Origin: a virus | Taxonomy: Duplodnaviria > Heunggongvirae > Uroviricota > Caudoviricetes | DNA: 35,803 nucleotides | Direction: 5' to 3' (one strand) | IMG/VR virus record: IMGVR_UViG_2548876858_000018 | Shown here: positions 1 through 26,892 of the stretch, piece by piece | Layout: every line of letters starts with the position of its first letter | How positions within the stretch are numbered: the stretch's first letter is position 1 | Translations under genes and position numbers: made by a program | Notes under the pieces: generated by a model | Database searches by the model: none | Told to the model about the DNA's origin: nothing | Seen by the model: only the letters and a program-made list of their open reading frames with translations

Positions 1-1032
1 TTATTTACCTTGAGAATCTATAGGTAAGATCCCCTTAAAAATCAAAAAATCTGGATCGTAAGCATAATTGGCTAAAAAATCACCGTTATTGGCAGTTGCT
101 TGGAAAATAATTGTATTTTGATCAATTAGCATGTACAGAGATATCAATATATCTCGTAATCCACGAAGCATTTCTTTTATTTCTTTTTCATCTGAAAATG
201 ATGTTTCTATTCCTAAGTTTGATATCGGATCAAAAATCTCAAATTTGTTGACTTCTCTTTCATAATTAACTCCTAGTTCTCTACACAGCCATACCACTTG
301 TGCTTCAATGTTCTCTAAATTAGATATGTTAACTTGTTTTGGGTAAAGCTGATTGTATCTTGCTATTTCATGCCCAATGCTGTTATATATATTTTCTAAT
401 TTTTCAAGGAATGATTTATCAACTTCATTATTATATCCAGTAGAGATTGAGGATTTTGTGAATATTTTTTTATATAATGAGTAGGTATGATCTACAGATA
501 GTTTAATTGTGTCTTTTTCGAAAGTTGTATTATCTCGACGAGAAAGGGTAAATGACGGTAACGTTTTAAACATATCCGAATAATTCTTGAGGTGAGCGTA
601 GTAAGCATCACTGCGGTTTTTCTCAGTCACTAGATCTATCTGTTGCTGTGTTTTCCTAATTTGATTTTCCGTTTGTATTGTTCTGTGAATGTTAGCGACT
701 ATAGCTACAAAGGGTATCGAAAGGGAAAGAAGAGCGATAGGCAACTTGCTTATTTCAATGAAGTTTGAAAATCCATCAGCATCAAATTGAGGAGAGTGTC
801 CCATCCATGAGAATATACCGAAGTATAAGGATGAGATAATAGGTATTCTGATGGATTGTTTAAATAAATTTTGTTTTGTTAGCCTTTCCTCAGTCATTTC
901 GAAATAATTATTATTTTTGTTTTTTGTGTATTCAATAAATAGATATATTAAATAAAAAATTATAAGGAAAGTAGATATTTCTGGTTTTTTTATATAGCTA
1001 ATTACGAATTCTTGAGTCATGGTGTGGTCCAT
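1..1032 (-). CDS. Hypothetical membrane-anchored protein (about 3 predicted N-terminal TM helices, about 220-aa soluble C-terminal domain); AT-rich cargo gene next to int
   Basis: 343-aa ORF with stop at 1-3; start overlaps int 3' end by 16 bp; hydrophobic stretches ISTFLIIFYLIYLFIEY, IPIISSLYFGIFSWMGH, LPIALLSLSIPFVAIVANI; strongly AT-rich versus phage backbone; family not recognised. Confidence 0.55.
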   Translation of the reverse strand: MDHTMTQEFVISYIKKPEISTFLIIFYLIYLFIEYTKNKNNNYFEMTEERLTKQNLFKQSIRIPIISSLYFGIFSWMGHSPQFDADGFSNFIEISKLPIALLSLSIPFVAIVANIHRTIQTENQIRKTQQQIDLVTEKNRSDAYYAHLKNYSDMFKTLPSFTLSRRDNTTFEKDTIKLSVDHTYSLYKKIFTKSSISTGYNNEVDKSFLEKLENIYNSIGHEIARYNQLYPKQVNISNLENIEAQVVWLCRELGVNYEREVNKFEIFDPISNLGIETSFSDEKEIKEMLRGLRDILISLYMLIDQNTIIFQATANNGDFLANYAYDPDFLIFKGILPIDSQGK

Positions 1033-2045
1033 TTTAATCTATATAAAGGGTTTTTTGATACTGCATCCTCTAAATGATCAGGTGCAAAATGTGCATAAAC
1101 CATAGTCATTTTTATATCCGAGTGACCAAGGATGTCGCGCAACACGAGTATGTTTCCGCCGTTCATCATAAAATGGCTAGCGAATGTATGGCGCAGTACG
1201 TGGGTGCATTGGCCCTCCGGTAGATCTATACCTGCCCGTTTTACTGCTCGTTCAAAGGCTTTTCTACATGGTGAGAATAACTTCCCTCTGTTCTTTGGGA
1301 GTTCGTCATACAGCTCCTGTGATATGGGTACTGTTCTGTTTTTCTTGCCTTTGGTCTTTGTATAAGTAATTCGGTATTTCGATATTTGGTGGCCCTGTAG
1401 GTTTTCTGCTTCACTCCATCGCGCACCAGTAGCCAGGCATATTTTTGCAATCATTAGTAGGCTGGTGTTTTGAGATTCGGCGCAGGCATTAAGCAGGCGT
1501 TTGATTTCGTCCGTGGAAAGAAAAGCCAATTCACCTTCAGCAATTTTGAAGGTTGGAAGCCCTGCCAGTGGGTTTGGTGCGGACCAGTGCCCTAGTTTTT
1601 TCAATGTACCGAACACCGATGACAGATTGCGTTGTTCAAGGTTTACCGTGCGGGGCTTAACCGGTGACATGAGCACGCCATCTTCGTTTTTGATCTCACC
1701 TTTTAATCTGGCTTCCCGGTACTTTGTGAAATCACCTGCTGTCAATTCAGAAGCGATGGGATCGCCAAGCCCATTACAAATGATTTTTAGCTTAGCCATT
1801 AATCGCTTAGGGTCAGCGAGTGTCTGACCGTACAGGGAATACCATTGCTCAATCACTTCTGACAGTGGTCGCCGATCTTCCTTTTCTCCCAGCCAAGGTT
1901 TCTTGTTTACCTCATCCATGGTGAAATTCTCAAACGCAATGGCTTCGCCTTTCGTCGCAAATTGTTTGCGTACGCGTTTGCCATCTCTCCCGTTTGGGTA
2001 GCATTCACATAACCACTTTCCGTTCGGCTGTTTTCTGATCGTCAT
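1017..2045 (-). CDS. int: Tyrosine-type site-specific integrase, P2/186 family
   Basis: 342 aa; N-terminal resemblance to P2 Int (R/KxxxxGxxxxxxxPxGRxGKRxRxxFxxKxEAxAFExxT) and C-terminal catalytic region HxLRHTFASHF...VYAHF. Confidence 0.9.
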   Translation of the reverse strand: MTIRKQPNGKWLCECYPNGRDGKRVRKQFATKGEAIAFENFTMDEVNKKPWLGEKEDRRPLSEVIEQWYSLYGQTLADPKRLMAKLKIICNGLGDPIASELTAGDFTKYREARLKGEIKNEDGVLMSPVKPRTVNLEQRNLSSVFGTLKKLGHWSAPNPLAGLPTFKIAEGELAFLSTDEIKRLLNACAESQNTSLLMIAKICLATGARWSEAENLQGHQISKYRITYTKTKGKKNRTVPISQELYDELPKNRGKLFSPCRKAFERAVKRAGIDLPEGQCTHVLRHTFASHFMMNGGNILVLRDILGHSDIKMTMVYAHFAPDHLEDAVSKNPLYRLKWTTP

Positions 2046-2047
2046 GA

Positions 2048-2686
2048 TTAGATGCTCTTAATCACTTTTACCACACGCCCTACAACGTCTACGTCATCAA
2101 CTGCACATTCAAAGGTTGTTTCTTCCTGATGAACAACAAGCTTATTTCCGGGAATTCGAGCTACTTTTACGATGCTTTTCACTCCATCAATATCAACAAG
2201 CCAGGAGCCATTACTGATCTGTTTTACAGATACATCAACAATAAAACTTTCTGTTGTCGTTTGTATGAATAGATAGTTTGACGAGTCGCCCTCAACCAAC
2301 CTGCTATCTAATAAAATTTCGTCATATGATTGAAGTTCACCATTTCTTAACTCTGTGTATTTGATACTGGGAGCTACGATTTTAGAAAGTGGTCTAATCG
2401 TGACGTCATTATCATTTTTGAGAATGTTTACGTCACTGTTATCTGCATACATATCACCCTGTCCGGTTGCCAACCAAAGAAGCGAGATCCCGGTTTCTAG
2501 TGCACATTGAATTACCCATTCTGCTGGAAAACTATCTCTTAAGTATCTGTTTGCCATGGTGCTTTTTGATACTTTTAAGTGTTCGCAGAGTTGTTGGCGT
2601 GAGCTGAAATTGTAGGCTTTTATCAGCCTGTTGATGGCATCACGACCCCCACTATCGTTTCCACCCTTGATTAGACTCATAATCAA
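2048..2686 (-). CDS. cI: 186-type CI immunity repressor
   Basis: 212 aa; divergent from early operon; motifs CALETG..L.WL.TG.G, LWLVDI.G..SI, PG.KL...FEC..DD..GRVV match 186 CI pattern as I recall it. Confidence 0.75.
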   Translation of the reverse strand: MIMSLIKGGNDSGGRDAINRLIKAYNFSSRQQLCEHLKVSKSTMANRYLRDSFPAEWVIQCALETGISLLWLATGQGDMYADNSDVNILKNDNDVTIRPLSKIVAPSIKYTELRNGELQSYDEILLDSRLVEGDSSNYLFIQTTTESFIVDVSVKQISNGSWLVDIDGVKSIVKVARIPGNKLVVHQEETTFECAVDDVDVVGRVVKVIKSI

Positions 2687-2691
2687 ACCCC

Positions 2692-2720
2692 TTGACGTAT
2701 ATAAAATGCGATCTTAATAT
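2692..2720 (+). promoter_or_regulatory. Sigma70-like early lytic promoter (pR-like): TTGACG - 17 bp - TAATAT
   Basis: Near-consensus -35/-10 with 17-bp spacer immediately upstream of apl/cII operon and adjacent to the divergent cI start. Confidence 0.5.
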
Positions 2721-2796
2721 CCATTCATGGTTTGAAAAGCAAAACCAAACCACATAAAACGAGATGAGACGATTACAAACTAAGAGATACTGCACT

Positions 2797-3045
2797 ATGA
2801 GCAACGACATTTCAATTCGTGTACCAAAAGTGATGGCGACACCAGCTGAGTTCGCGGAATGGGAAGGCTACTCTCGCGGTTCGGTATATCAAATGATTCA
2901 TAATGGTAAGCTCGCTAAGTTTTTAGAAAAAAAGGAAAAACCGAAAGACAGAGTATGTATACGTTACCTTGAGTACAAAAAGGAACAAGTCAGGAAAAAC
3001 ATGGGCCAATCCAATTTCAACTTTAATGTCATCGTTGGTGGTTAA
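2797..3045 (+). CDS. Apl/Cox-like excisionase-regulator (small HTH protein); start uncertain (2764 or 2797)
   Basis: First gene of rightward early operon, position equivalent to 186 apl / P2 cox; small basic protein. Confidence 0.5.
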   Translation: MSNDISIRVPKVMATPAEFAEWEGYSRGSVYQMIHNGKLAKFLEKKEKPKDRVCIRYLEYKKEQVRKNMGQSNFNFNVIVGG

Positions 3046-3077
3046 GTTCAATTATGAGAACTTTCTAAGGGGGCAGC

Positions 3078-3587
3078 ATGTTTGATTACAAGATTTCCAA
3101 ACATCCGCATTTTGATGAAGCCTGTAGAGCTTTTGCACTACGCCACAATATGGCGAAGCTGGCAGAACGTGCAGGAATGAATGTTCAGACACTGCGAAAC
3201 AAACTCAACCCAGATCAACCGCATCAGCTCACAGCGCCAGAAATCTGGTTGCTTACCGATCTGACTGAAGATTCAACGCTGGTAGATGGCTTTCTGGCAC
3301 AGATTCACTGCCTACCATGTGTACCGATTAATGAGGTGGCAAAAGAGAAACTGCCACATTACGTCATGAGTGCAACCGCAGAGATCGGGCGTGTCGCGGC
3401 AGGTGCGGTATCTGGCGATGTAAAAACCTGTGCCGGTCGTCGTGATGCTATCAGCAGCATTAACTCTGTAACACGACTGATGGCGCTGGCGGCTGTTTCA
3501 TTGCAGGGCCGTTTACAGGCTAATCCTGCGATGGCGAGTGCAGTTGATACCGTGACTGGCCTCGGTGCTTCATTCGGATTGCTGTGA
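3078..3587 (+). CDS. cII: 186-type CII lysogeny-establishment activator
   Basis: 169 aa, same length and N-terminus (MFDYKISKHPHFDEACRAFALRHNMAKLAE...) as phage 186 CII as recalled; RBS GGGGG upstream. Confidence 0.85.
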   Translation: MFDYKISKHPHFDEACRAFALRHNMAKLAERAGMNVQTLRNKLNPDQPHQLTAPEIWLLTDLTEDSTLVDGFLAQIHCLPCVPINEVAKEKLPHYVMSATAEIGRVAAGAVSGDVKTCAGRRDAISSINSVTRLMALAAVSLQGRLQANPAMASAVDTVTGLGASFGLL

Positions 3588-4878: not shown

Positions 4879-5732
4879 GCACCATCCTGAAATGGGCGGG
4901 AAATAAAACCGCCATTATGTCCGAACTGAAAAAGCATCTTCCTGCTGGCCCGCGACTGGTTGAACCTTTCGCGGGTTCCTGTGCTGTGATGATGGAGACG
5001 GAGTACCCCAGCTATCTTGTTGCGGATATTAATCCTGATTTAATCAACCTCTATAAAAAGGTTGCTGCTGATTGTGAATCGTTTATATCTCGCGCCAGAG
5101 TTTTATTTGAGATCGCAAACAGGGAGGTGGCTTATTACAACATAAGGCAGGAGTTTAATTACTCAACTGAAATTACTGATTTCATGAAAGCGGTATATTT
5201 CCTGTATCTCAATCGTCACGGTTACCGTGGTTTATGTCGCTATAACAAGAGCGGGCATTTCAACATTCCCTACGGTAATTATAAAAATCCGTATTTCCCT
5301 GAAAAAGAAATTCGCGCATTTGCAGAAAAAGCCCAGCGAGCAATGTTTATCTGCGCCAGCTTTGATGAAACGCTGGCGATGTTGAAGGCGGGGGATGTGG
5401 TGTATTGCGATCCGCCGTATGACGGTACGTTTTCCGGCTATCACACTGATGGTTTCACTGAAGATGACCAGTATCACCTGGCATCCGTTCTTGAACATCG
5501 GTCATCAGAAGGACATCCGGTCATTGTTTCTAACAGTGACACATCCCTGATCCGTTCGCTGTATCGCAATTTTACTCACCACTATATCAAGGTAAAACGC
5601 AGCATCGGTGTGGCAGCTGGCGAGGGTAAATCAGCAACAGAAATCATTGCTGTTTCCGGGCCGCGCTGCTGGGTGGGATTTGATTATTCGCGTGGCGTGG
5701 ATAGTTCTGCCGTGTACGGAGTACGTGCATGA
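4875..5732 (+). CDS. dam: DNA adenine methyltransferase (Dam-like, GATC N6-A class)
   Basis: ATG at 4875 ([11 protein letters not shown]...); motifs [26 protein letters not shown] shared with E. coli Dam. Confidence 0.85.
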
Positions 5733-8143
5733 GCCATGCCGATATGAACAACTGCTGCGGCTTTAACGAGGCTGCCGCAGCGTTCTCATGGAACAGCCCG
5801 AAAAAGGCCATTAACCCTTATCTGGACCCGGCGGAAGTTGCGCCGGTTTCTGCGCTTTCAAACCTGATCACTCTGTACGCTGCCGATAACGAGCAGGAAC
5901 AGCTGCGCCGCGAGGCACTGAGTGATCAGGTCTGGGAGCGTTATTTCTTTAATGAATCCCGTGATCCTGTCCAACGCGAAATGGAGCAGGATAAGCTCAT
6001 TAGCCGGGCAAAGCTGGCGCATGAGCAGCAGCGTTTTAATCCAGACATGGTCATTCTGGCGGACGTTAACGCCCAGCCTTCCCATATCAGCAAGCCGCTG
6101 ATGCAACGTATTGAATACTTCAGCAGCCTGGGCAGGCCAAAGGCTTATTCCCGCTATTTGCGTGAGACGATTAAGCCATGTCTGGAACGACTGGAGCATG
6201 TACGCGACTGTCAGCTATCCACTTCTTTTCGCTTTATGGCAAGCCATGAAGGGCTGGACGGCCTGCTGATCCTGCCTGAAATGAGTCAGGATCAGGTGAA
6301 GCGCCTGTCTACCCTTGTCGCCGCGCATATGAGCATGTGCCTTGATGCAGCTTGTGGTGATTTGTATGCCACCGATGACATTAAGCCAGAAGAAATCCGC
6401 AAAACATGGGAAAAGGTGGCAGCGGAAACCCTGCGTCTGGATGTTATCCCGCCTGCGTTTGAGCAACTCCGTCGGAAAAGAAACCGCCGTAAACCCGTGC
6501 CTTATGAACTCATTCCGGGTTCGCTGGCGCGTATGTTATGCGCCGACTGGTGGTATCGGAAATTATGGAAGATGCGTTGCGAATGGCGGGAAGAGCAGTT
6601 GCGTGCTGTTTGCCTGGTCAGCAAAAAAGCATCTCCCTATGTCAGCTATGAAGCCGTGATGCATAAACGTGAGCAGCGCCGTAAGTCGCTGGAGTTTTTC
6701 CGTTCTCATGAACTGGTGAACGAAGACGGCGACACGCTGGATATGGAAGACGTGGTAAACGCCAGCAGCAGCAACCCTGCACATCGCCGCAATGAGATGA
6801 TGGCCTGTGTTAAAGGTCTGGAGCTTATCGCGGAAATGCGCGGTGACAGCGCCGTTTTCTACACCATCACCTGTCCGTCACGTTTCCATTCCACGCTAAA
6901 TAACGGCAGGCCCAACCCGACCTGGACAAATGCGACGGTAAGACAAAGCAGTGATTATCTGGTCGGTATGTTTGCTGCATTTCGTAAGGCGATGCACAAA
7001 GCCGGATTACGCTGGTATGGCGTGCGGGTGGCTGAGCCGCATCATGACGGTACAGTTCACTGGCACCTGTTGTGTTTTATGCGCAAAAAAGATCGCCGCG
7101 CCATTACTGCTTTGTTGCGTAAGTTTGCCATTCGTGAAGACCGCGAGGAGCTGGGTAATAACACGGAACCACGCTTTAAGTCTGAGCTGATAAACCCGCG
7201 CAAAGGTACGCCAACAAGCTACATCGCGAAATACATCAGTAAGAACATTGACGGGCGTGGTCTGGCTGGCGAGATCAGCAAGGAAACGGGTAAATCCCTG
7301 CGTGATAACGCTGAATACGTTAATGCCTGGGCGTCTCTGCATCGTGTTCAGCAATTCCGCTTCTTTGGCATTCCGGGGCGTCAGGCTTACCGTGAACTGC
7401 GATTGCTGGCTGGTCAGGCGGCAAGGCAACAGGGGGGCAAAAAAGCAAGTGCGCCGGTACTGGATAACCCGCGCCTTGATGCCATCCTGGCCGCTGCTGA
7501 TGCTGGTTGTTTTGCCACCTACATCATGAAGCAGGGCGGCGTACTGGTTCCCCGCAAATATCACCTCATCAGAACCGCTTATGAAATCAACGAAGAGCCG
7601 ACCGCCTATGGCGATCACGGTATTCGTATTTATGGCATCTGGTCACCCATTGCAGAGGGCAAGATCTGCACTCATGCGGTGAAGTGGAAAATGGTTCGTA
7701 AGGCCGTTGACATTCAGGAGGCGGCAGCCGACCAGGGCGCTTGCGCCCCTTGGACTCGTGGCAATAACTGTCCCCTTGCTGAAAATTTGAACCAACAAGG
7801 GAAAGACAAATCAGCTTATGGGGATACCAGAACGGACATTACCCGCATGGATGACAAGGAGTTGCACGATTACCTGCACAGTATGAGCAAAAAAGAGCGC
7901 CGGGAACTGGCTGCAAGGTTACGCCTGGTGAAACCGAAACGGCGTAAAGACTACAAACAGCGAATTACAGACCATCAGCGACAGCAGCTCGTCTATGAGC
8001 TGAAGTCCAGAGGATTTGATGGCAGCGAGAAAGAGGTCGGTTTACTCCTTCGCGGCGGCAGTATTCCGTCAGGAGCAGGCCTGCGTATCTTCTATCGGAA
8101 CCAGCGTTTGCAGGAAGATGATAAGTGGCGGGATCTGTATTAA
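5729..8143 (+). CDS. A: Replication initiation endonuclease (P2 gpA family, rolling-circle initiator)
   Basis: 804 aa; HxH-type motif GTVHWHLL; position and size as P2/186 gene A; start overlaps dam stop. Confidence 0.9.
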
Positions 8144-8235
8144 TTACGCGGGTTAACAATTCGTGCTCTTAATAATACCAAGCATATCAGGCTGATGAAC
8201 GTAAAAAAACGTTTTACATCAGTAAGATTATTATA

Positions 8236-8255
8236 TACTGTAAATATAAACAGTG
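8236..8255 (+). promoter_or_regulatory. LexA box (SOS operator) tACTGTaaatataaACAGtg overlapping a putative promoter
   Basis: Perfect CTGT-N8-ACAG with AT-rich centre, 40 bp upstream of ORF 8296; upstream TTTACA/TATACT elements. Confidence 0.6.
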
Positions 8256-8295
8256 GTTATGTATACAGTATTGCTTTGGTGTCATAGGAGGAAAG

Positions 8296-8484
8296 ATGCA
8301 GGACTATTTTTTGGAGTCTTTGAAGCTCCAGCGCATTGATTTTTTTCTTAAGCTTGTAGCGGCTAGTGAGTGTAGTGATGAAGAGAAGGGGCTGGCCCTG
8401 CAGTGGGTTTCTGAACTAACAGATGAACTCATGGCAAAAATCAGAACCCACGAATACAACCGCTCAATGGATGTCATCAGCTGA
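8296..8484 (+). CDS. Hypothetical small protein, possibly N-terminal part of a split Tum-like SOS antirepressor
   Basis: 62-aa ORF downstream of LexA box, RBS AGGAGG; immediately followed by DinI-like ORF. Confidence 0.4.
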   Translation: MQDYFLESLKLQRIDFFLKLVAASECSDEEKGLALQWVSELTDELMAKIRTHEYNRSMDVIS

Positions 8485-8494
8485 GGTGACTTTT

Positions 8495-8728
8495 ATGCGC
8501 ATTGAAATAATGATCGATAAAGAGCAGAAGATTAGCCAGTCTACCCTGGACGCTCTGGAGTCCGAGCTTTACCGCAACCTGCGCCCCCTGTATCCCAAAA
8601 CGGTAATTCGTATCCGCAAAGGTAGCTCTAACGGTGTGGAACTTACCGGACTGCAACTGGACGAAGAAAGAAAACAAGTGATGAAAATTATGCAGAAAGT
8701 GTGGGAAGACGACAGCTGGCTGCATTAA
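8495..8728 (+). CDS. DinI-like protein (Tum C-terminal-like)
   Basis: ATG 8495 (MRIEIMIDK...); resembles E. coli DinI (MRIEVTIAK..., C-terminal W-E-D-D-W motif). Confidence 0.75.
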   Translation: MRIEIMIDKEQKISQSTLDALESELYRNLRPLYPKTVIRIRKGSSNGVELTGLQLDEERKQVMKIMQKVWEDDSWLH

Positions 8729-8862
8729 GAAACGTTGCTGGCGTCTGAACTTGCTTCTGGCGTCAGCAAGGTTGAACAACGAGCCCTTGCGAGGCGTTAG
8801 CTCTGTAGTGCATGTCTATGCCGCATGAGATCGCATGATCGTTTGAGGATCGTTTTTGCTAA

Positions 8863-8888
8863 GGCCCGCCAGAACTGGCGGGCTTTTG
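8863..8888 (+). terminator. Rho-independent terminator ending early/SOS operon
   Basis: GGCCCGCCAG-aa-CTGGCGGGC stem followed by TTTTG. Confidence 0.55.
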
Positions 8889-8932
8889 CGTAGATCATGC
8901 AGGTGCATGAAAACCACTGCATAAAGCGGGCA

Positions 8933-8951
8933 GGCGTGGCGGGGATACGAG
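8933..8951. other. cos-like sequence (candidate cohesive-end site)
   Basis: GGCGTGGCGGGGA matches first 13 nt of the 186 cohesive end as I recall it (P2 is GGCGAGGCGGGGA...); remainder diverges. Confidence 0.35.
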
Positions 8952-9052
8952 CGCGCGCAACAGTGTAACAATCTGGATCTAATGTGATATAGTTACTGTA
9001 AATATTATTAACTATTCTTATATGCATTATTAAATATTTTAATGGAGCGTTT

Positions 9053-10726
9053 ATGGAAAAATATCAAGATGAGGAATATGTAGATGATTTAACTGAGCGT
9101 GTTTTTCTCATTAAGCAACAACTGGAAGCGGGAAAACTAAAAATAGCTCATCATCTTGTAGAAGGTTTTATTGAAAGTTTTAAAAGAATAAGGCTGCGAC
9201 AGGATGGTAAAGTTGACCCTTCTACTGTTGATGGCAGAATAAGGGCTATGGGAGCAGCGGTTAATCACTTTTTAGAAAGAGAAGATATAAAAAACAAATA
9301 CTCTATTCAGGACTTGCAAAGTTCTTACTTTAATATTCTTTTTAGTAATTTTGGCGAGTTGTTTTATCTGATGAAAAAAACTAATGCAACGCCACATAAA
9401 GCATCAAGTTTTTTTTCTCAACAAGAAGAATATGTTAAGCAAATAGAAGATATTTTTCCTGAGTTATATAATCAGGTAATAGAGTTTTGGCAGGTAACAT
9501 CCGATATTGGTGTAATACATTTGCAGGATGGTTCTCAGTTTAAAGCTAATTTTTCTGGTGACTTATTTCCTGCATTTGATGAGAATGCTGTCTCTATTGC
9601 AGGGTTGTATGTTGATACTATTTCACTTCCATGTCCTATATTAAGAGTCGGTCGTCTCTATGAAAAGTCAGATAAGGCTGAGTTTACAAGGATACTTCTG
9701 AAGCATGTCCTAACATGTATGACATATAAAGAAGTAGCGCTTGAAGATATAGAGCCAGCAATAGTATTAATTTTGCCGGATAGAAGAGATTTTGAAACTG
9801 AGAGCAAAAAAAATTTGATGAGTTTTTGTGAGCCTTATGCTCTGACTCATGCGCAATATCTCTATGATCGACGGTTCGAAAGCTACGATGAATTTCGAGA
9901 TTTTAGTTATTCGATGAATGATATTGATGCTGTTCTTAAAAATATTAAGAGAGCAGATAGACTTATTTTTGATACAGCATGGGGGCTAAATCCAAAAACT
10001 CAATTAGAAAAACTACTATCTGATAAAAAAAGAATATCACGTAATGTTGTTGGTGATCATGCTGGAATGGAGGTTTTCCTTTCCTGCATTGGAAGAATGC
10101 CGCAAGCCTATTCAGCAAAATGTAATGCACAAGAACTTGGTAGTACTCCATATATAAATGCAGACACATCTTGGCTCTATTATACTTGGCTTATTGAGTA
10201 CGAATCTCTTAATTTTGATGTCAATGATATTGAACTAAAAAATTTGCATATGGTTCATGCGTTATCTGCTGGTATGCAAGATGGTTTTTCATGGTTAGGA
10301 AATGTACCGGTCAATAAAATAATTGAGTTGAGACGTAACAAATTGATGGAGGATGTAAGATCCATCTTATCAAATGGTGTTGACTCTTTAATCAATTCTT
10401 CGGCAGAGAGCTTTTCGAGGACAACGCAAAAAGTAATTGATAATGTAGACCGGGCTTTTATTGAACATCAAAGGATTCTTGCAAAAGCCCAAAAAGAGAA
10501 ATTGAGAATTTACGGACTAGATGTCCTACCATGTATCGCAAATGGTGCTATAGCAATTGCTGGAGCGCTGACTGGCAATACTACTTTAACGGCGTTAAGT
10601 GCAGGCCTTGGAGTAATAGGTATTCCGAGTATTAGTGATATCAAATCTAAATTTAAGCAGAGGCAAGAGAAGCTTGATGCCTATCAACGTTCTGTTACAG
10701 GTATACTCTTTAGCCATAAATCTTAA
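9053..10726 (+). CDS. Hypothetical 557-aa protein, AT-rich cargo gene in the cos-to-portal variable slot; C-terminal glycine-rich hydrophobic segment
   Basis: Long ORF with RBS GGAG; markedly AT-rich; flanked by terminators; no Walker A or nuclease motif recognised. Confidence 0.6.
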   Translation: MEKYQDEEYVDDLTERVFLIKQQLEAGKLKIAHHLVEGFIESFKRIRLRQDGKVDPSTVDGRIRAMGAAVNHFLEREDIKNKYSIQDLQSSYFNILFSNFGELFYLMKKTNATPHKASSFFSQQEEYVKQIEDIFPELYNQVIEFWQVTSDIGVIHLQDGSQFKANFSGDLFPAFDENAVSIAGLYVDTISLPCPILRVGRLYEKSDKAEFTRILLKHVLTCMTYKEVALEDIEPAIVLILPDRRDFETESKKNLMSFCEPYALTHAQYLYDRRFESYDEFRDFSYSMNDIDAVLKNIKRADRLIFDTAWGLNPKTQLEKLLSDKKRISRNVVGDHAGMEVFLSCIGRMPQAYSAKCNAQELGSTPYINADTSWLYYTWLIEYESLNFDVNDIELKNLHMVHALSAGMQDGFSWLGNVPVNKIIELRRNKLMEDVRSILSNGVDSLINSSAESFSRTTQKVIDNVDRAFIEHQRILAKAQKEKLRIYGLDVLPCIANGAIAIAGALTGNTTLTALSAGLGVIGIPSISDIKSKFKQRQEKLDAYQRSVTGILFSHKS

Positions 10727-10731
10727 TGTAG

Positions 10732-10760
10732 AGGGCCGAGGTATTCGGCCCTTAGTTTTA
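10732..10760. terminator. Bidirectional rho-independent terminator between cargo gene and portal gene
   Basis: GGGCCGA-ggtat-TCGGCCC hairpin flanked by T-rich run on + and A-rich on other side. Confidence 0.5.
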
Positions 10761-11789
10761 TATGAAACTGTATGGCATGAATTTTATTATGTCATCTTTG
10801 AGCCATTTATTGAGTTCTTCTATTCTGTTTTGTAGCGGTATCAATTCATTACGCATAAAAACCTTACTAGCCTTCTCCACATCCCCAAATCCCCCAACAT
10901 TATTCGGCATTATCCCCATCATTTGCGGCGGCACTCGGTGTGCTGCCATCATGTCATCCCGGCTCACGTTCTTGATATTCAAAAATTCATCCTTTGCCGC
11001 GACTTCTGACAGAGGAATAATCTGAAGCCCGTCTTTTTTGCCGTTAGGCGAGTACATAAACAGGTTGCGGAAGTTGCCTGGACCTTTGGCGCTTTTCATC
11101 GCGTTACGGAGATTGTTTACATCTTCCTGGTTCTGCGCGGCGTCGGTCATGTACATGATGAAGCCTGCATGGCTGCCGTTGATGTAATACTTACGGCGGA
11201 ACAGCGTGGCGGACTCGTTGAGCAGGGCTGACGGAATGGCAGAAAGATAACCGGGCAGGCCGTAGATCTCCTGGTTGATATCTGGTTCCATCAGATGAAA
11301 AATGCTGCCTTTCGTGAACTGATACGGTTGCGTGGTCATACCGTATTGCACAAACCAGTAGGTATCCAGGTCTAACCCGCGTCGGGTATATTTTGCCAGG
11401 GCAGGCTCAAGAGCGATAATTTCACCGAACCGGTTCGTGCGTTTCTCCAGATAGGCGTTACCAAATACCAGATAGTCCTGCACAAAACGTGAAAAAGCCT
11501 GCTGGCTGAGCAGCGGGTGAGGGATGTAGGTGCTGGTCAGAATGTTGCACTTTACTGCAATCGGGGAACTATGATGAACGGCAGCGCGGAAGGTGCGCGC
11601 CAGTCCGTCAAAGCTGACGGGCGGCTCATACCAGCGGTCCATCTGTACGCATTCCACATAATCCAGCAGTTCTCGGCGGTCCAGAACAGGAACGGGATCG
11701 CCGAAGCTGAATGCTTCGGCTGTAGTTTGACTTTTAAGCTGGATCTGTTTCGTCGCCGCAGCGCGGTTCTTCTTACTCTTTCCCATCAA
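10758..11789 (-). CDS. Q: Portal protein (P2 gpQ family)
   Basis: 343 aa, size and position of P2 Q, adjacent and co-oriented with terminase P. Confidence 0.9.
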   Translation of the reverse strand: MMGKSKKNRAAATKQIQLKSQTTAEAFSFGDPVPVLDRRELLDYVECVQMDRWYEPPVSFDGLARTFRAAVHHSSPIAVKCNILTSTYIPHPLLSQQAFSRFVQDYLVFGNAYLEKRTNRFGEIIALEPALAKYTRRGLDLDTYWFVQYGMTTQPYQFTKGSIFHLMEPDINQEIYGLPGYLSAIPSALLNESATLFRRKYYINGSHAGFIMYMTDAAQNQEDVNNLRNAMKSAKGPGNFRNLFMYSPNGKKDGLQIIPLSEVAAKDEFLNIKNVSRDDMMAAHRVPPQMMGIMPNNVGGFGDVEKASKVFMRNELIPLQNRIEELNKWLKDDIIKFMPYSFI

Positions 11790-18111: not shown

Positions 18112-18536
18112 ACCGGTTGCTGCTGGTTGTGCTGGCGTTATTACTGGCGGCGCTGGGCTGGCAGACGTGGCGGCTGGCTGATGCCAGCCAGACCATCAGC
18201 ACGCAGGCAGATGAGCTGCAGAGCAAAAGCCAGGCACTGGCAAAGAGCAACAGCCAGCTTATCAGCCTGTCCATTCTGACAGAAACCAACAACCGGGAGC
18301 AGGCGCGACTCTATGCCGACGCAGAACAGACCAGCGCACTACTGAGACAACGACAACACCGGATTGAGGAACTGAAACGTGAGAACGAGGATTTACGCCG
18401 CTGGGCTGATACTCCTTTGCCTGCTGACATTATCCGGCTGCGGGAACGCCCCACACTCACCGGAGGTGCAGCTTACCGTCAGTGGTTGTCCGCGAGTGAC
18501 GCCGTGTCGGCTGGGGCAGGCAGCGCCGCGCACTAA
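18108..18536 (+). CDS. lysB: LysB i-spanin (Rz-like)
   Basis: N-terminal TM (LLLVVLALLLAALGW) followed by coiled-coil. Confidence 0.65.
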   Translation: MNRLLLVVLALLLAALGWQTWRLADASQTISTQADELQSKSQALAKSNSQLISLSILTETNNREQARLYADAEQTSALLRQRQHRIEELKRENEDLRRWADTPLPADIIRLRERPTLTGGAAYRQWLSASDAVSAGAGSAAH

Positions 18537-21998: not shown

Positions 21999-23554
21999 GC
22001 ACAAAATTTTATACCCTGCTGACGGATATTGGCGCGGCGAAACTTGCCAGCGCCGCCGCGCTCGGTGTGCCGCTAAAAATTACCCATATGGCGGTGGGCG
22101 ATGGCGGTGGAGTATTGCCAACGCCGGACGCAAAGCAGACGGCACTGGTAAATGAGAAACGCCGGGCTGCGCTGAATATGCTTTATATCGACCCGCAGAA
22201 CAGCAGCCAGATTATTGCCGAACAGGTGATCCCTGAAAACGAGGGCGGTTGGTGGATACGTGAAGTGGGCTTGTTTGATGAGTCCGGGGCATTGATTGCC
22301 GTGGGCAACTGCCCGGAAAGCTATAAGCCGCAACTGGCTGAAGGTAGCGGGCGCACTCAGACCGTGCGCATGGTGCTGATTACCAGCAGCACGGACAATA
22401 TCACCCTGAAAATCGACCCTGCTGTAGTGCTGGCAACCCGCAAGTATGTGGATGACAAGGCACTGGAGCTGAAGGTGTACGCGGATGATCAGATGGCAAA
22501 ACATCTTGCCGCACCGGACCCGCATTCACAGTACGCGCCAAAAGCCAGCCCGACATTTACCGGAACCCCCAAAGCGCCAACGCCAGCGGCGGGGAATAAT
22601 ACCACGCAGGTTGCGACCACTGCGTTTGTACAGGCGGCACTGACGGCCCTTATTAATGGTGCGCCAGCCACGCTGGACACGCTGAAAGAAATAGCCGCAG
22701 CCATTAACAATGATCCGAATTTCAGTACCACCATTAACAATGCGCTGGCACTTAAAGCACCGTTGTCGAGTCCGGCACTCACCGGAACGCCAACAGCCCC
22801 CACGGCGGCGCAGTCGGTCAACAATACACAGATTGCCACTACGGCTTTTGTGAAATCGGCGATTGCAGGAATGGTGGGTTCTGCACCTGCTGCACTGGAT
22901 ACACTGAACGAACTGGCGGCGGCACTGGGGAATGATCCGAACTTTGCCACGACAATGCTTAATGCGCTGGCAGGTAAACAACCGCTGGACAATACGCTTA
23001 CCAATTTGAGTGGAAAGGATGTAGCTGGTCTTCTCACATACCTTGGTTTGGGAGAAGGTTCGGCATTACCCGTTGGTGTGCCTGTTCCGTGGCCTTCCGC
23101 CACTCCGCCAACAGGCTGGCTGAAATGCAACGGTGCAGCATTTTCTGCTGAAGAATACCCGGAACTGGCAAAGGCTTACCCGACAAATAAATTGCCTGAT
23201 TTACGTGGTGAGTTTATTCGTGGCTGGGATGACGGACGTGGTATGGATACGGGGAGGGCAATATTATCAGCTCAGGGCGATGCCATACGTAATATCTATG
23301 GTGAGTTCAGAACTGTAAACACTGAAAATTATTCAATATGGGAAACAGCAGGCTCGTTTAAGGGGGCCATAGTGCCATTGAGTCCCTCTACAAACAATAG
23401 TTATTTCTCCTTAACCAGAAGTATGGTGACAGAAAGAGCAGACGGCGCTGTTTACCCAAAAGTGATTGGCCTTGATGCTTCAAGAATTGTTCCAACTGCA
23501 AACGAAAATCGACCCCGTAACATTGCCTTTAATTATATCGTGAGGGCTGCCTGA
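21995..23554 (+). CDS. H: Tail fibre protein H (constant N-terminal part plus currently expressed variable C-terminal cassette)
   Basis: N-terminus MSTKFYTLLTDIGAAKLA...MAVGDGGG matches P2 H; C-terminal part after 23057 lies inside the invertible segment. Confidence 0.85.
   Translation: MSTKFYTLLTDIGAAKLASAAALGVPLKITHMAVGDGGGVLPTPDAKQTALVNEKRRAALNMLYIDPQNSSQIIAEQVIPENEGGWWIREVGLFDESGALIAVGNCPESYKPQLAEGSGRTQTVRMVLITSSTDNITLKIDPAVVLATRKYVDDKALELKVYADDQMAKHLAAPDPHSQYAPKASPTFTGTPKAPTPAAGNNTTQVATTAFVQAALTALINGAPATLDTLKEIAAAINNDPNFSTTINNALALKAPLSSPALTGTPTAPTAAQSVNNTQIATTAFVKSAIAGMVGSAPAALDTLNELAAALGNDPNFATTMLNALAGKQPLDNTLTNLSGKDVAGLLTYLGLGEGSALPVGVPVPWPSATPPTGWLKCNGAAFSAEEYPELAKAYPTNKLPDLRGEFIRGWDDGRGMDTGRAILSAQGDAIRNIYGEFRTVNTENYSIWETAGSFKGAIVPLSPSTNNSYFSLTRSMVTERADGAVYPKVIGLDASRIVPTANENRPRNIAFNYIVRAA
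23043..23057. repeat. Left inversion crossover site (inverted-repeat core TTGGTTTGGGAGAAG) inside H
   Basis: 15-bp exact match to reverse complement of 24936-24950. Confidence 0.55.
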
Positions 23555-24156
23555 TGGATAAAGCTATATTAAATAAGGAACTCATCGCCACAAAGGCGGG
23601 AGATATTACCGTTTATAATTATGATGGTGAAACGCGGGAATATATTTCTACATCAACTGAATATCTTGCTGTTGGCGTCGGTATCCCGGCATGTTCTTGT
23701 TTAGATGCGCCAGTTACACATAAAGCTGGTTATGCTATCTGCCGCTCAGCAGATTTTAACTCATGGGAATATGTGCCAGACCATCGCGGTGAAATTGTCT
23801 ATAACACCGAAACGGGAGATGCCAAAGAAATCACAGCACCAGGCGACTATCCCGAAAAAACAACCACTCTCGCACCGTTAACGCCATACGATAAATGGGA
23901 TGGTGAGAAATGGGTGACCGATACTGAGGCACAGCATAGCGCCGCAGTAGAAGCGGCAGAAGCACAGCGCCAGTCGCTGATTGATGCTGCAATGGCTTCT
24001 ATCAGTCTGATTCAACTGAAATTACAGGCCGGGCGGAAGCTGACGCAGACAGAAAACACCCGACTTAACGCCGTGCTGGATTACATTGACGCGGTGACGG
24101 CAACAGATACCAGCACCGCGCCGGATGTCATCTGGCCTGAACTGCCGGAGGCGTAG
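23554..24156 (+). CDS. G: Tail fibre assembly chaperone G (P2 gpG family)
   Basis: 200 aa; N-terminal region resembles tail fibre assembly proteins. Confidence 0.8.
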   Translation: MDKAILNKELIATKAGDITVYNYDGETREYISTSTEYLAVGVGIPACSCLDAPVTHKAGYAICRSADFNSWEYVPDHRGEIVYNTETGDAKEITAPGDYPEKTTTLAPLTPYDKWDGEKWVTDTEAQHSAAVEAAEAQRQSLIDAAMASISLIQLKLQAGRKLTQTENTRLNAVLDYIDAVTATDTSTAPDVIWPELPEA

Positions 24157-24601
24157 GCCATTCAATATCTGGAGCACTGGAGGTATCAACCAGTTCCAGT
24201 GCGTCCAGATAATCCAGCCACAAATTATATTGCGCCAGTTCCTCACCTTTCAGACGACCAATAGCCGCTTTACCGGGCCATTGTTTACTGTTCATGTATT
24301 CGTTGACCTGGTTAATCAATTGCTGCTTTTTCAATTCGGCTGCGGCAATCTGTTCCTCATGTGTTGGTGGTGGAATATCTGCCCATGATGGCATTCCATC
24401 TTCACCAACGCACCTGTATTTTCCTTCTGGTGCTGGTTTAAGTGCAAATTCTTCGAAAACAGAATATTTAACGGGTTTTGCATCTGCTGGAAAAGAATTA
24501 GATTTAATATATTCTTGTTTCAAATGCTCAGGGTAAAATGCATTATTTATAGAGCTGTAGTATATTATGCTCGACATTTTATAATCCTTATGGAAGCTCA
24601 A
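24128..24601 (-). CDS. Alternative tail fibre assembly chaperone (inverted cassette)
   Basis: Convergent with G; C-terminal ...DYLDA...TDTS.APD..WPE/TPP conserved with G on + strand; start uncertain. Confidence 0.7.
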   Translation of the reverse strand: MSFHKDYKMSSIIYYSSINNAFYPEHLKQEYIKSNSFPADAKPVKYSVFEEFALKPAPEGKYRCVGEDGMPSWADIPPPTHEEQIAAAELKKQQLINQVNEYMNSKQWPGKAAIGRLKGEELAQYNLWLDYLDALELVDTSSAPDIEWPTPPAVQAR

Positions 24602-24990
24602 TATCCCAGTACCAGAAAATCACCTGTTTCAGTTGCGGCTGAAGTTGATATAGTCCTTGCAGCACAAATGGCCTTTAATTCTGTTTTTGTTAGTTCGGAC
24701 ACTCCCCAGGAATTAATACCTATTGGGCCTGTGGATACTGCGGTTTTTTCAGCAATAAATGCCATAAATGCAGAATTTGGAAAAGCAATAGGATAACTTC
24801 CTGTTGCAACACCAGTTTTACTATCAGAAGGTCCGATTCTTCCCCATTGGATAATAAAAGACTTCCCCTCTATAACAGGGATTTTTATCCAGCCAGATGA
24901 TGATAAAGAGCCACTAATCGCAGGCAATTTGGCCGCTTCTCCCAAACCAACGTTTATGAAAATGCAGAGATAACGGCTAACTGGCATCAT
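24598..24990 (-). CDS. Alternative tail fibre C-terminal cassette (silent in this orientation)
   Basis: Minus-strand ORF whose 5' end contains the crossover-site repeat; lacks own N-terminal constant region. Confidence 0.6.
   Translation of the reverse strand: MMPVSRYLCIFINVGLGEAAKLPAISGSLSSSGWIKIPVIEGKSFIIQWGRIGPSDSKTGVATGSYPIAFPNSAFMAFIAEKTAVSTGPIGINSWGVSELTKTELKAICAARTISTSAATETGDFLVLGY
24936..24950. repeat. Right inversion crossover site (inverted copy of 23043-23057)
   Basis: Reverse complement equals TTGGTTTGGGAGAAG; lies just upstream of invertase gene. Confidence 0.55.
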
Positions 24991-25011
24991 CCCCGGTTTT
25001 TATTCAGGGGA

Positions 25012-25247
25012 TTGATCATGCTTATTGGCTATGTACGCGTGTCAACAAATGACCAGAACACCGATTTGCAACGTAATGCACTGAACTGCGCGGGATGTGA
25101 GCGGATTTTTGAGGACAAAATCAGTGGCACTAAGTCCGACAGACCGGGGCTGAAAAAACTACTCAGGACACTATCGGCAGGAGACACGCTGGTTGTCTGG
25201 AAGCTGGACAGGTTGGGGCGCAGTATGCGGCATCTTGTTACGCTGAT
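25012..25247 (+). pseudogene. Gin/Pin/Cin-family serine DNA invertase, N-terminal fragment (gene interrupted by IS)
   Basis: MIMLIGYVRVSTNDQNTDLQRNAL... near-identical pattern to Mu Gin N-terminus; reading frame enters IS at 25248. Confidence 0.85.
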
Positions 25248-25255
25248 TGTAGTGG

Positions 25256-26505
<1,250 letters not shown>

Positions 26506-26845
26506 GATAGAAGAGTTGCGCCAGCGTGGTGTGAATTTCAGAAGCCTGACTGACAGTATTGATACCAGTACCCCAATGGGCCGTTTCTTTTTTCATGTCA
26601 TGGGTGCCCTGGCTGAAATGGAACGCGAACTGATAGTTGAACGTACCAGGGCAGGGCTGGCTGCAGCTCGTGCCAAAGGCAGAGTAGGTGGACGCCGTCC
26701 TAAGTTGACCACCGAACAGTGGGCACAGATTGGGCGTTTACTCGAGGCCGGAGAATCAAGACAGCGTATTGCACTGATTTTTGATGTAGGCGTTTCTACC
26801 ATTTATAGAAAATTTCCGGCAAATAAGATCAATGAATCCCCCTGA
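26506..26845 (+). pseudogene. Gin/Pin/Cin-family serine DNA invertase, C-terminal fragment
   Basis: ...ELRQRGVNFRSLTDSIDTSTPMGRFFFHVMGALAEMEREL...GGRRPKLT... matches Gin C-terminal two-thirds; removing IS plus one GAT copy restores frame (…LVTLIEELRQRG…). Confidence 0.85.
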
Positions 26846-26892
26846 ATCAGCATTATGTTGATTATCCCTGCAAGCAGACAAATACCGTTATT

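Follow-up and report, generated by a model that had tools for sequence, protein, structure and literature searches.

The window analysed here, a stretch of viral DNA 35,803 nucleotides long, is a Fels-2-like prophage of the P2/186 family, and the module of interest lies directly downstream of its replication gene A, a position common to 186, PSP3, Fels-2 and DuoHS, a prophage of E. coli HS. At this position two small genes, one encoding a 62-residue protein (ORF62, the tumA-like gene, whose product we refer to as TumA) and the other a 77-residue DinI-like protein, are preceded by two overlapping predicted LexA boxes and followed by an intrinsic terminator (Table 1). One cargo gene separates the SOS module from the portal, terminase, capsid, lysis and tail genes. 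What this analysis itself shows is the module's sequence anatomy, its homologies and its conservation.

Table 1. Features of the prophage and of its SOS module (positions are those of the window).
Feature	Position	Strand	Basis or remark
Integrase	1017-2045	minus	
CI immunity repressor, 186-type	2048-2686	minus	Pfam Phage_CI_repr and Phage_CI_C
CII-like regulator	3078-3587		listed after the CI repressor
DNA adenine methylase	between the CII-like regulator and gene A		
Replication gene A (rolling-circle)	5729-8143		Pfam Phage_GPA, E = 3e-127
-35-like TTTACA of the tum promoter, with an A tract 5' of it	8213-8218	+	upstream-region alignment
-10 region, TATACTGT	8234-8241	+	near-invariant in the alignment; overlaps LexA box 1
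Predicted LexA box 1 (distal)	8236-8255	+	TACTGTAAATATAAACAGTG; core CTGT-N8-ACAG at 8238-8253; top-scoring 20-mer
Predicted LexA box 2 (proximal)	8251-8270	+	CAGTGGTTATGTATACAGTA; core at 8253-8268; one base common to both cores
tumA-like gene, 62 aa	8296-8484	+	AGGAGG Shine-Dalgarno at 8286-8291
DinI-like gene (tumB-like), 77 aa	8495-8728	+	10 nt past the tumA stop; own GAGGTGA ribosome-binding site
Hairpin without U tract	8731-8773	+	just 3' of the DinI-like gene; -26.9 kcal/mol, z = -2.2
Intrinsic terminator of the SOS operon	8861-8886	+	-27.6 kcal/mol, z = -5.1

From 8144 to 8900, the DNA shares 96-98% identity with Felsduovirus phages of Escherichia, Klebsiella and Salmonella, Fels-2 included. 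The window and DuoHS are collinear, at 92-97% identity, in their genes for regulation, replication, head, tail and lysis, and three blocks differ between the two prophages: the immunity region (1-3077), the cargo that follows the operon, between terminator and portal gene (8730-10780), and the tail-fibre region (22458-26862). Judging from this collinearity with an inducible prophage, the prophage in the window looks complete. The module itself is nearly the same in DuoHS (ECHS_RS04495, tum) and in Fels-2 (STM2728), with 98% identity for ORF62 and 100% for the DinI-like protein, the same placement after gene A, an identical box 1, and a divergence in box 2 that is confined to the spacer. Both of these prophages have a further ORF after the DinI-like gene (225 aa in DuoHS, 243 aa in Fels-2), whereas the window does not.

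The core of box 1, CTGTAAATATAAACAG, is a perfect CTGT-N8-ACAG lying exactly where the first-pass annotation had put it, and the ORF62 start codon follows 42 nt past the box, close to the roughly 40 bp given there; the 62-aa ORF itself is likewise present as described. The bare eight-base pattern is by itself weak evidence, as it matches twice in the window against 0.48 matches expected, and at least two matches occur in 8 of 100 shuffles. For this reason, all 20-mers of the window were scored with a heterology-type index whose matrix was derived from 19 LexA sites of E. coli; since the resulting scores miss the published absolute values (0.58 versus 2.77 for umuDC, 3.2 versus 7.55 for the distal cna box), the rankings alone were used. 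Box 1 ranks first in the 35.8-kb window with a score of 4.2, which none of 300 mononucleotide shuffles reached, and the third-best 20-mer (12.6) falls far behind both box 1 and box 2. The other CTGT-N8-ACAG match, at 18267, was rejected as a LexA site on account of its GC-rich spacer and its score of 14.8. Also rejected was the half-site-like TACTGTAAATAT (8993-9004) upstream of the cargo gene, where the 20-mer at 8984-9003 scores 39.5, none of the neighbouring 20-mers enters the window's top ten, and a matching right half is not seen.

Conservation was assessed by scanning one genome per species, which yielded 33 loci with relatives of ORF62 at 71-100% identity. Within Enterobacterales these span more than 15 genera, among them Escherichia, Citrobacter, Enterobacter, Klebsiella, Serratia, Pantoea, Erwinia and Tatumella. 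Upstream DNA sufficed for examination in 32 of the loci, of which 30 keep a CTGT-N8-(A/C)CAG 38-95 nt upstream of the ATG; one of the two that lack it has its ORF truncated to 20 codons. The N8 spacer and the flanks vary among these loci while the half-sites of the box are kept. A chance match in AT-rich intergenic DNA, next to ORFs that are constitutive or never expressed, would account for a bare pattern that occurs twice in the window and recurs in shuffled sequence. We consider this the least credible of the alternatives, to the point of being negligible, given the top rank of the 20-mer against the shuffles, the retention of the box across genera despite a varying spacer, the induction of the Fels-2 operon by a mutagen (PMC2225428), and the dependence of DuoHS induction on lexA (PMC12055606).

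Alignment of 32 upstream regions places the box within a conserved promoter-like arrangement. An A tract and TTTACA are followed by a variable stretch with a fixed length of 15 nt, by TATACTGT, by a variable AT-rich spacer, and by a conserved ACAGT, beyond which the remaining DNA drifts; there are no indels between TTTACA and the LexA box in any of the 32 regions. This is the layout of the annotated p95 promoter of 186, whose -10 is TACTGT, the first six bases of the LexA site. Two -10 hexamers can be read in the window, TATACT with a 15-nt spacer or TACTGT with a 17-nt spacer, the latter as annotated for 186 p95. The promoter-like region that the first-pass annotation saw under the box is borne out by the conserved hexamers and the p95 layout, but not by a consensus scanner, which called no promoter in the module region; the hexamers are imperfect. 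On this alignment, the predicted LexA operator overlaps the promoter of the operon.

Overlapping box 1 is a second LexA box that was absent from the first-pass annotation. Box 2 is the second-best LexA-like site by rank in the window (score 7.65); its left half departs from CTGT at two positions. With a single scoring threshold applied to three promoter families, 20 of the 33 distinct upstream regions of the ORF62 type were found to carry two boxes 15 nt apart, 12 to carry one and 1 to carry none. In contrast, one box, near-consensus in the 186 type, was found in every promoter of the 186 type (68 of 68 distinct upstream regions) and of the PSP3 type (67 of 67), and two boxes or none in no case.

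A BLAST search of plasmids with the 51-bp operator matched the promoters of small Col-type plasmids, at E = 1e-5 to 3e-6, and of the Yersinia pestis plasmid pPCP1. One match lies some 45 nt before cna, the colicin N gene, where TACTGTAAATATAAACAGTGGTTATGTATACAGTATT of the window aligns with AACTGTATATAAAACCAGTGGTTATGTGTACAGTATT; box 2 and the proximal colicin N box differ by one base. The dual operators of colicin N cna and of pesticin on pPCP1 have, as here, two LexA boxes whose cores have one base in common, and are near-identical to the operator in the window (CAGTGGTTATGT(A/G)TACAGTATT); the published heterology indices of the two cna boxes are 7.55 and 11.61. Colicin operators of this kind are occupied by two LexA dimers, and their repression is very tight and released late (PMC2994835). 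What they drive is a bacteriocin and lysis operon, whereas the operator in the window would drive a prophage antirepressor. By comparison with these systems, LexA would be expected to occupy both predicted boxes. The likeness may reflect common descent or convergence on LexA binding. In the literature consulted, we found no description of a double LexA operator at a Fels-2-type tum promoter.

The DinI-like gene annotated in the first pass is confirmed by the Pfam DinI family (PF06183), which it matches with E = 6.6e-23 and 81.3 bits against a cut-off of 24.2, over profile positions 1-63 of 63, and its product matches the structure of E. coli DinI (1ghh, E = 2.7e-6). Alignment of both ORFs to 186 Tum, which had been proposed as a check, succeeded for the DinI-like protein, which has 41% identity with Tum across 75 positions, Tum residues 71-145 (E = 3e-24), while for ORF62 it failed by BLASTP and succeeded by profiles. 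Residue 1 of the DinI-like protein aligns with Tum residue 71, the start of the internal, GTG-initiated product of 186 tum, and because the two starts coincide, the point at which the genes are split is a natural domain boundary. From its family membership, the most probable role of the DinI-like protein is to bind RecA filaments and to adjust how strong or how long the SOS signal is.

Pairwise BLASTP with ORF62 finds nothing in 186 Tum or PSP3 TumA, and ORF62 has neither a Pfam family nor a match among solved structures. Nevertheless, residues 1-70 of 186 Tum match the PHROG family of ORF62, phrog_698, with E = 5.9e-6, over positions 6-44 of both, and phrog_8554 is matched by ORF62 (2.4e-8) as well as by the N-terminal part of 186 Tum (3.4e-12), as is phrog_1993. 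In hhalign comparisons, columns 4-43 of the ORF62 family align with columns 4-43 of the 186 Tum N-terminal family (E = 3.1e-4, probability 39%), and the latter aligns with the PSP3 TumA family at E = 1e-5; the direct comparison of the ORF62 and PSP3 TumA families, which are different PHROG families, is non-significant (E = 0.077). ORF62 and the N-terminal part of 186 Tum are about 21% identical, with a Cys and an Ala-Leu pair in common, and the strongly conserved core of ORF62 spans residues 9-45. These comparisons point to a homology between ORF62 and the N-terminal half of 186 Tum that appears remote but real, and ORF62 is a probable antirepressor of 186-type CI.

The split of Tum into two genes, which the first-pass annotation had ascribed to several 186-like prophages, is documented for Fels-2 and PSP3 in PMC3121763, which credits it to Bunny et al. 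2002 and a personal communication, and the same arrangement is seen in the GenBank annotations of both phages. In PSP3, the upstream gene is reported there as the carrier of the antirepressor activity. In Salmonella, the Fels-2 operon STM2726-STM2728 responds to the mutagen MX, with STM2727 increased 5.5- to 14.8-fold and listed among the LexA regulon (PMC2225428). According to PMC12055606, an in-frame deletion of tum (ECHS_RS04495) in DuoHS abolished lysis and viral foci after mitomycin C, as did lexA(Ind-) separately. In RefSeq, ECHS_RS04495 is a 189-bp "hypothetical protein" gene directly before the DinI-like gene. The junction primers given in that paper map to window positions 8276-8298, with one mismatch, and 8482-8504, with none, and from these positions it follows that the deletion took exactly the ORF62 homologue; induction was thus lost although the DinI-like gene was spared together with its ribosome-binding site and ATG. 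Complementation of the deletion is not mentioned in the text of PMC12055606 that was consulted. LexA and tum dependence and damage-inducible transcription are taken from these near-identical prophages, and would by analogy hold for the prophage in the window.

A reading in which the DinI-like protein brings about induction and ORF62 is an irrelevant leader ORF could be drawn from the databases, in which the DinI-like gene alone carries a label and the 62-aa ORF is listed as hypothetical, and from 186, where both parts form one protein. The DuoHS deletion, in which loss of the 62-aa ORF alone sufficed to abolish induction, argues strongly against this, as do the conservation of the ORF62 core, the reported antirepressor activity of the upstream PSP3 gene, and the absence of a DinI-like gene after tumA in 12 of the 33 related loci; we regard such a reading as very unlikely. 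Together, the deletion phenotype and the absence of the gene from these 12 loci identify the DinI-like protein as an accessory and not as the trigger. It is even harder to view the module as a lysogenic-conversion cassette that modulates the host SOS response through DinI and plays no part in the prophage switch. LexA-controlled accessory DinI homologues do occur in other prophages, such as the Gifsy phages (PMC3121763), but DuoHS induction requires tum, ORF62 appears homologous to the N-terminal half of Tum, and the synteny of the module with gene A and a 186-type CI is fixed.

The antirepressor presumably acts on the CI encoded in the window, which matches the structure of 186 CI (2fjr) with E = 3.6e-28 and in which a Pfam domain search found no Peptidase_S24 (autocleavage) domain. 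As CI lacks this domain, induction through LexA derepression, as the first-pass annotation had claimed, is supported over induction through CI autocleavage, and the tum and lexA(Ind-) results from DuoHS favour the same route. The 186 Tum protein binds CI and blocks its binding to the operator (Shearwin 1998, as cited in PMC3121763), and by analogy TumA would bind the CI of the window. Because this CI is only about 38% identical to that of DuoHS, we infer rather than observe the action of TumA upon it, and this action, extrapolated across immunity types, is the main residual uncertainty.

A reading built on this uncertainty is that the operon is SOS-induced but its TumA leaves the resident CI active, acting instead on co-resident relatives or persisting as a relic, in which case the prophage would not be induced by damage through the module. 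In comparisons of the window with DuoHS and strain S21, TumA is 98-100% identical and CI only 38-41%, and the immunity region is the main block in which the window and DuoHS differ. However, the same type of TumA stands beside many types of CI. The antirepressor is near-invariant across prophages whose CI proteins are only 31-40% identical, and locus pairs with TumA at least 95% identical have CI identities down to 37%. Across the 28 loci with both genes, the pairwise identities of TumA and CI are uncorrelated (Spearman -0.005), as expected if TumA recognised a conserved N-terminal domain of CI. Moreover, LexA box and ORF are intact in 32 of the 33 loci, the sole locus with a truncated ORF has lost its box as well, and, since CI lacks the S24 domain, there is no other candidate route of induction. 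We therefore consider it unlikely that TumA fails to act on its own CI. Of the CI columns, 27 of 66 in the N-terminal DNA-binding domain and 11 of 105 in the C-terminal domain are conserved at 90% or more. Taken together, these patterns suggest that the antirepressor is independent of immunity type, and because the N-terminal domain is the conserved part of CI, TumA may recognise that domain.

We favour the reading, at a probability of roughly 0.85, that this region is the SOS operon of a Fels-2-like prophage, in which a LexA-controlled TumA antirepressor of the 186-type CI triggers induction. In an undamaged lysogen, host LexA would sit on the two overlapping SOS boxes just downstream of gene A, covering the -10 region and the probable start site and keeping the operon silent. 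Upon DNA damage, activated RecA would promote the self-cleavage of LexA, and the operon would then be transcribed, giving the 62-aa TumA-like and the 77-aa DinI-like proteins. The TumA-like protein would sequester the 186-type CI, as 186 Tum does (PMC3121763, PMC7708051), so that the lytic promoter would open and lytic growth would be entered without cleavage of CI. The DinI-like protein would feed back on RecA filaments, like DinI and the short product of 186 tum.

Transcription of the operon would stop at the terminator that the first-pass annotation had called strong; the hairpin is real, placed at 8861-8886, and the same sequence ends the Fels-2 operon. It is missing from the list of the consensus scanner because its T run has only four T. 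A weak hairpin that the scanner did report across the tumA stop (8473-8490), and one on the minus strand, were not taken as functional. The hairpin without a U tract may terminate transcription in part or stabilise the 3' end of the transcript, and where a locus has no DinI-like gene, the sequence of this hairpin lies directly 3' of tumA.

This type of module is known already from 186, PSP3, Fels-2 and DuoHS; the original observation is confirmed and its interpretation supported. As in the window, the promoter of the 186 operon, p95, lies downstream of gene A and is LexA-repressed, its -10 being overlapped by the box, and 186 Tum is an antirepressor of a CI of the same type, without an autocleavage domain. 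Tum of 186 is a single 146-aa fusion whose DinI-like C-terminal part doubles as a separate product, whereas the window has two genes, and in place of the single box of 186 the window has two overlapping ones. Downstream, 186 has orf97, for which the window has no counterpart; the 243-aa ORF of Fels-2, although of the same length, was rejected as an orf97 homologue, showing no similarity to it. PSP3 has the split arrangement of the window, its TumA/TumB pair consisting of a gene for a protein of about 60 aa and a DinI-like gene, LexA-boxed and placed after gene A, but its promoter type is single-boxed and its TumA has no significant direct similarity to ORF62. The Gifsy antirepressors GfoA and GftA, as described in PMC3121763, are likewise small, LexA-controlled and in an operon with a dinI homologue, and their action can extend in trans to repressors of other prophages; they differ from the window in a reversed gene order, with dinI first, and in the repressor family concerned.

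What may distinguish the Fels-2 type is a rewiring of the 186 circuit in which a colicin-type double LexA operator is combined with an immunity-type-independent antirepressor that recognises the N-terminal domain of CI. We put this forward as a tentative and still doubtful proposal; no description of an immunity-independent antirepressor of the Fels-2 type was found in the literature consulted. If it is true, the double operator would tighten repression and raise the amount of damage needed for the lysis decision, and a single SOS-induced TumA could, in the manner of the Gifsy antirepressors, act in trans to induce co-resident prophages that are heteroimmune. A double colicin-like operator would bear on the way in which prophages fix their damage threshold, and a constant antirepressor facing varied repressors on the joint induction of heteroimmune relatives in one cell.

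With this result the prophage falls among those P2/186-family members that are SOS-inducible and controlled by an antirepressor, from which it can be predicted what antibiotics and stresses would mobilise it. Up to four copies of the module occur within some single E. coli genomes. In genome annotations, the antirepressor gene is still labelled "hypothetical protein", and its improved annotation is the practical gain. DNA matching the module is present in 1144 of 5426 complete E. coli genomes, in 731 of them with at least 80% query coverage.

Gene content in the stretch from the SOS-operon terminator to the portal gene differs among related prophages. In the window, this slot holds a single gene for a 557-aa cargo protein, preceded by a promoter-like site (table below), while other genes reside at the same location in DuoHS, Fels-2, and the strain S21 prophage. 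As the content varies in this way, the slot looks like a variable hotspot, possibly one for anti-phage defence. The 557-aa protein (9053-10726) yielded no Pfam match, and a PADLOC search returned a weak match to DitB (E = 7.3e-10).

Features at the prophage edge and downstream of the SOS genes
Feature	Coordinates	Strand	Remarks
343-aa ORF	1-1032	-	adjoins integrase, at prophage edge
Stable hairpin without U tract	8731-8773	+	directly 3' of DinI-like gene; -26.9 kcal/mol, z = -2.2
Promoter-like site upstream of 557-aa cargo gene	8965-8993	+	
557-aa cargo gene	9053-10726	+	single gene between SOS-operon terminator and portal gene

The 343-aa ORF (1-1032), which may be cut off by the end of the window, had no PADLOC match. 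The equivalent position in strain S21 is occupied by a KAP-family P-loop NTPase, and this comparison of gene content suggests that the position is a second variable cargo slot. Within the tail-fibre region, the block at 22458-26862 is not common to DuoHS; in the DuoHS paper (PMC12055606), this region is named the second moron region. Fels-2 STM2726 (L002, 4645-5376) and phage 186 orf97 (L001, 7605-8336) both encode 243 aa and both follow the tum/DinI genes, and a comparison of the two proteins detected no similarity between them. The window differs from both phages in carrying a counterpart of neither gene.

The block containing the integrase, CI, and the Apl-like gene (1-3077) has been swapped relative to the DuoHS and strain S21 prophages, to which the window is 92-97% identical outside this block. 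In the same comparisons, identity is only 38-41% for CI against 98-100% for the antirepressor. The start codon of CI (2048-2686, minus strand) is uncertain: the longest ORF, of 212 aa, begins with TTG, and an ATG two codons inward would give 210 aa, the length found in several relatives.

In the related loci L015, L025, and L038, which have no DinI-like gene, the sequence of the 8731-8773 hairpin is found directly 3' of tumA. Like t95a of 186, this hairpin may act as a partial terminator; alternatively, it may stabilise the 3' end.

Besides LexA box 1, the sole match to CTGT-N8-ACAG in the window lies at 18267-18282 (CTGTCCATTCTGACAG). Considered as a further LexA site, it is probably a chance match, given the GC-rich spacer and a poor LexA score of 14.8. 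The only related locus that lacks a LexA box is the one from Siccibacter turicensis (L036, around position 8001), where truncation leaves a tumA ORF of 20 codons. The box seems to have degenerated jointly with the gene, in a prophage that is itself degraded.
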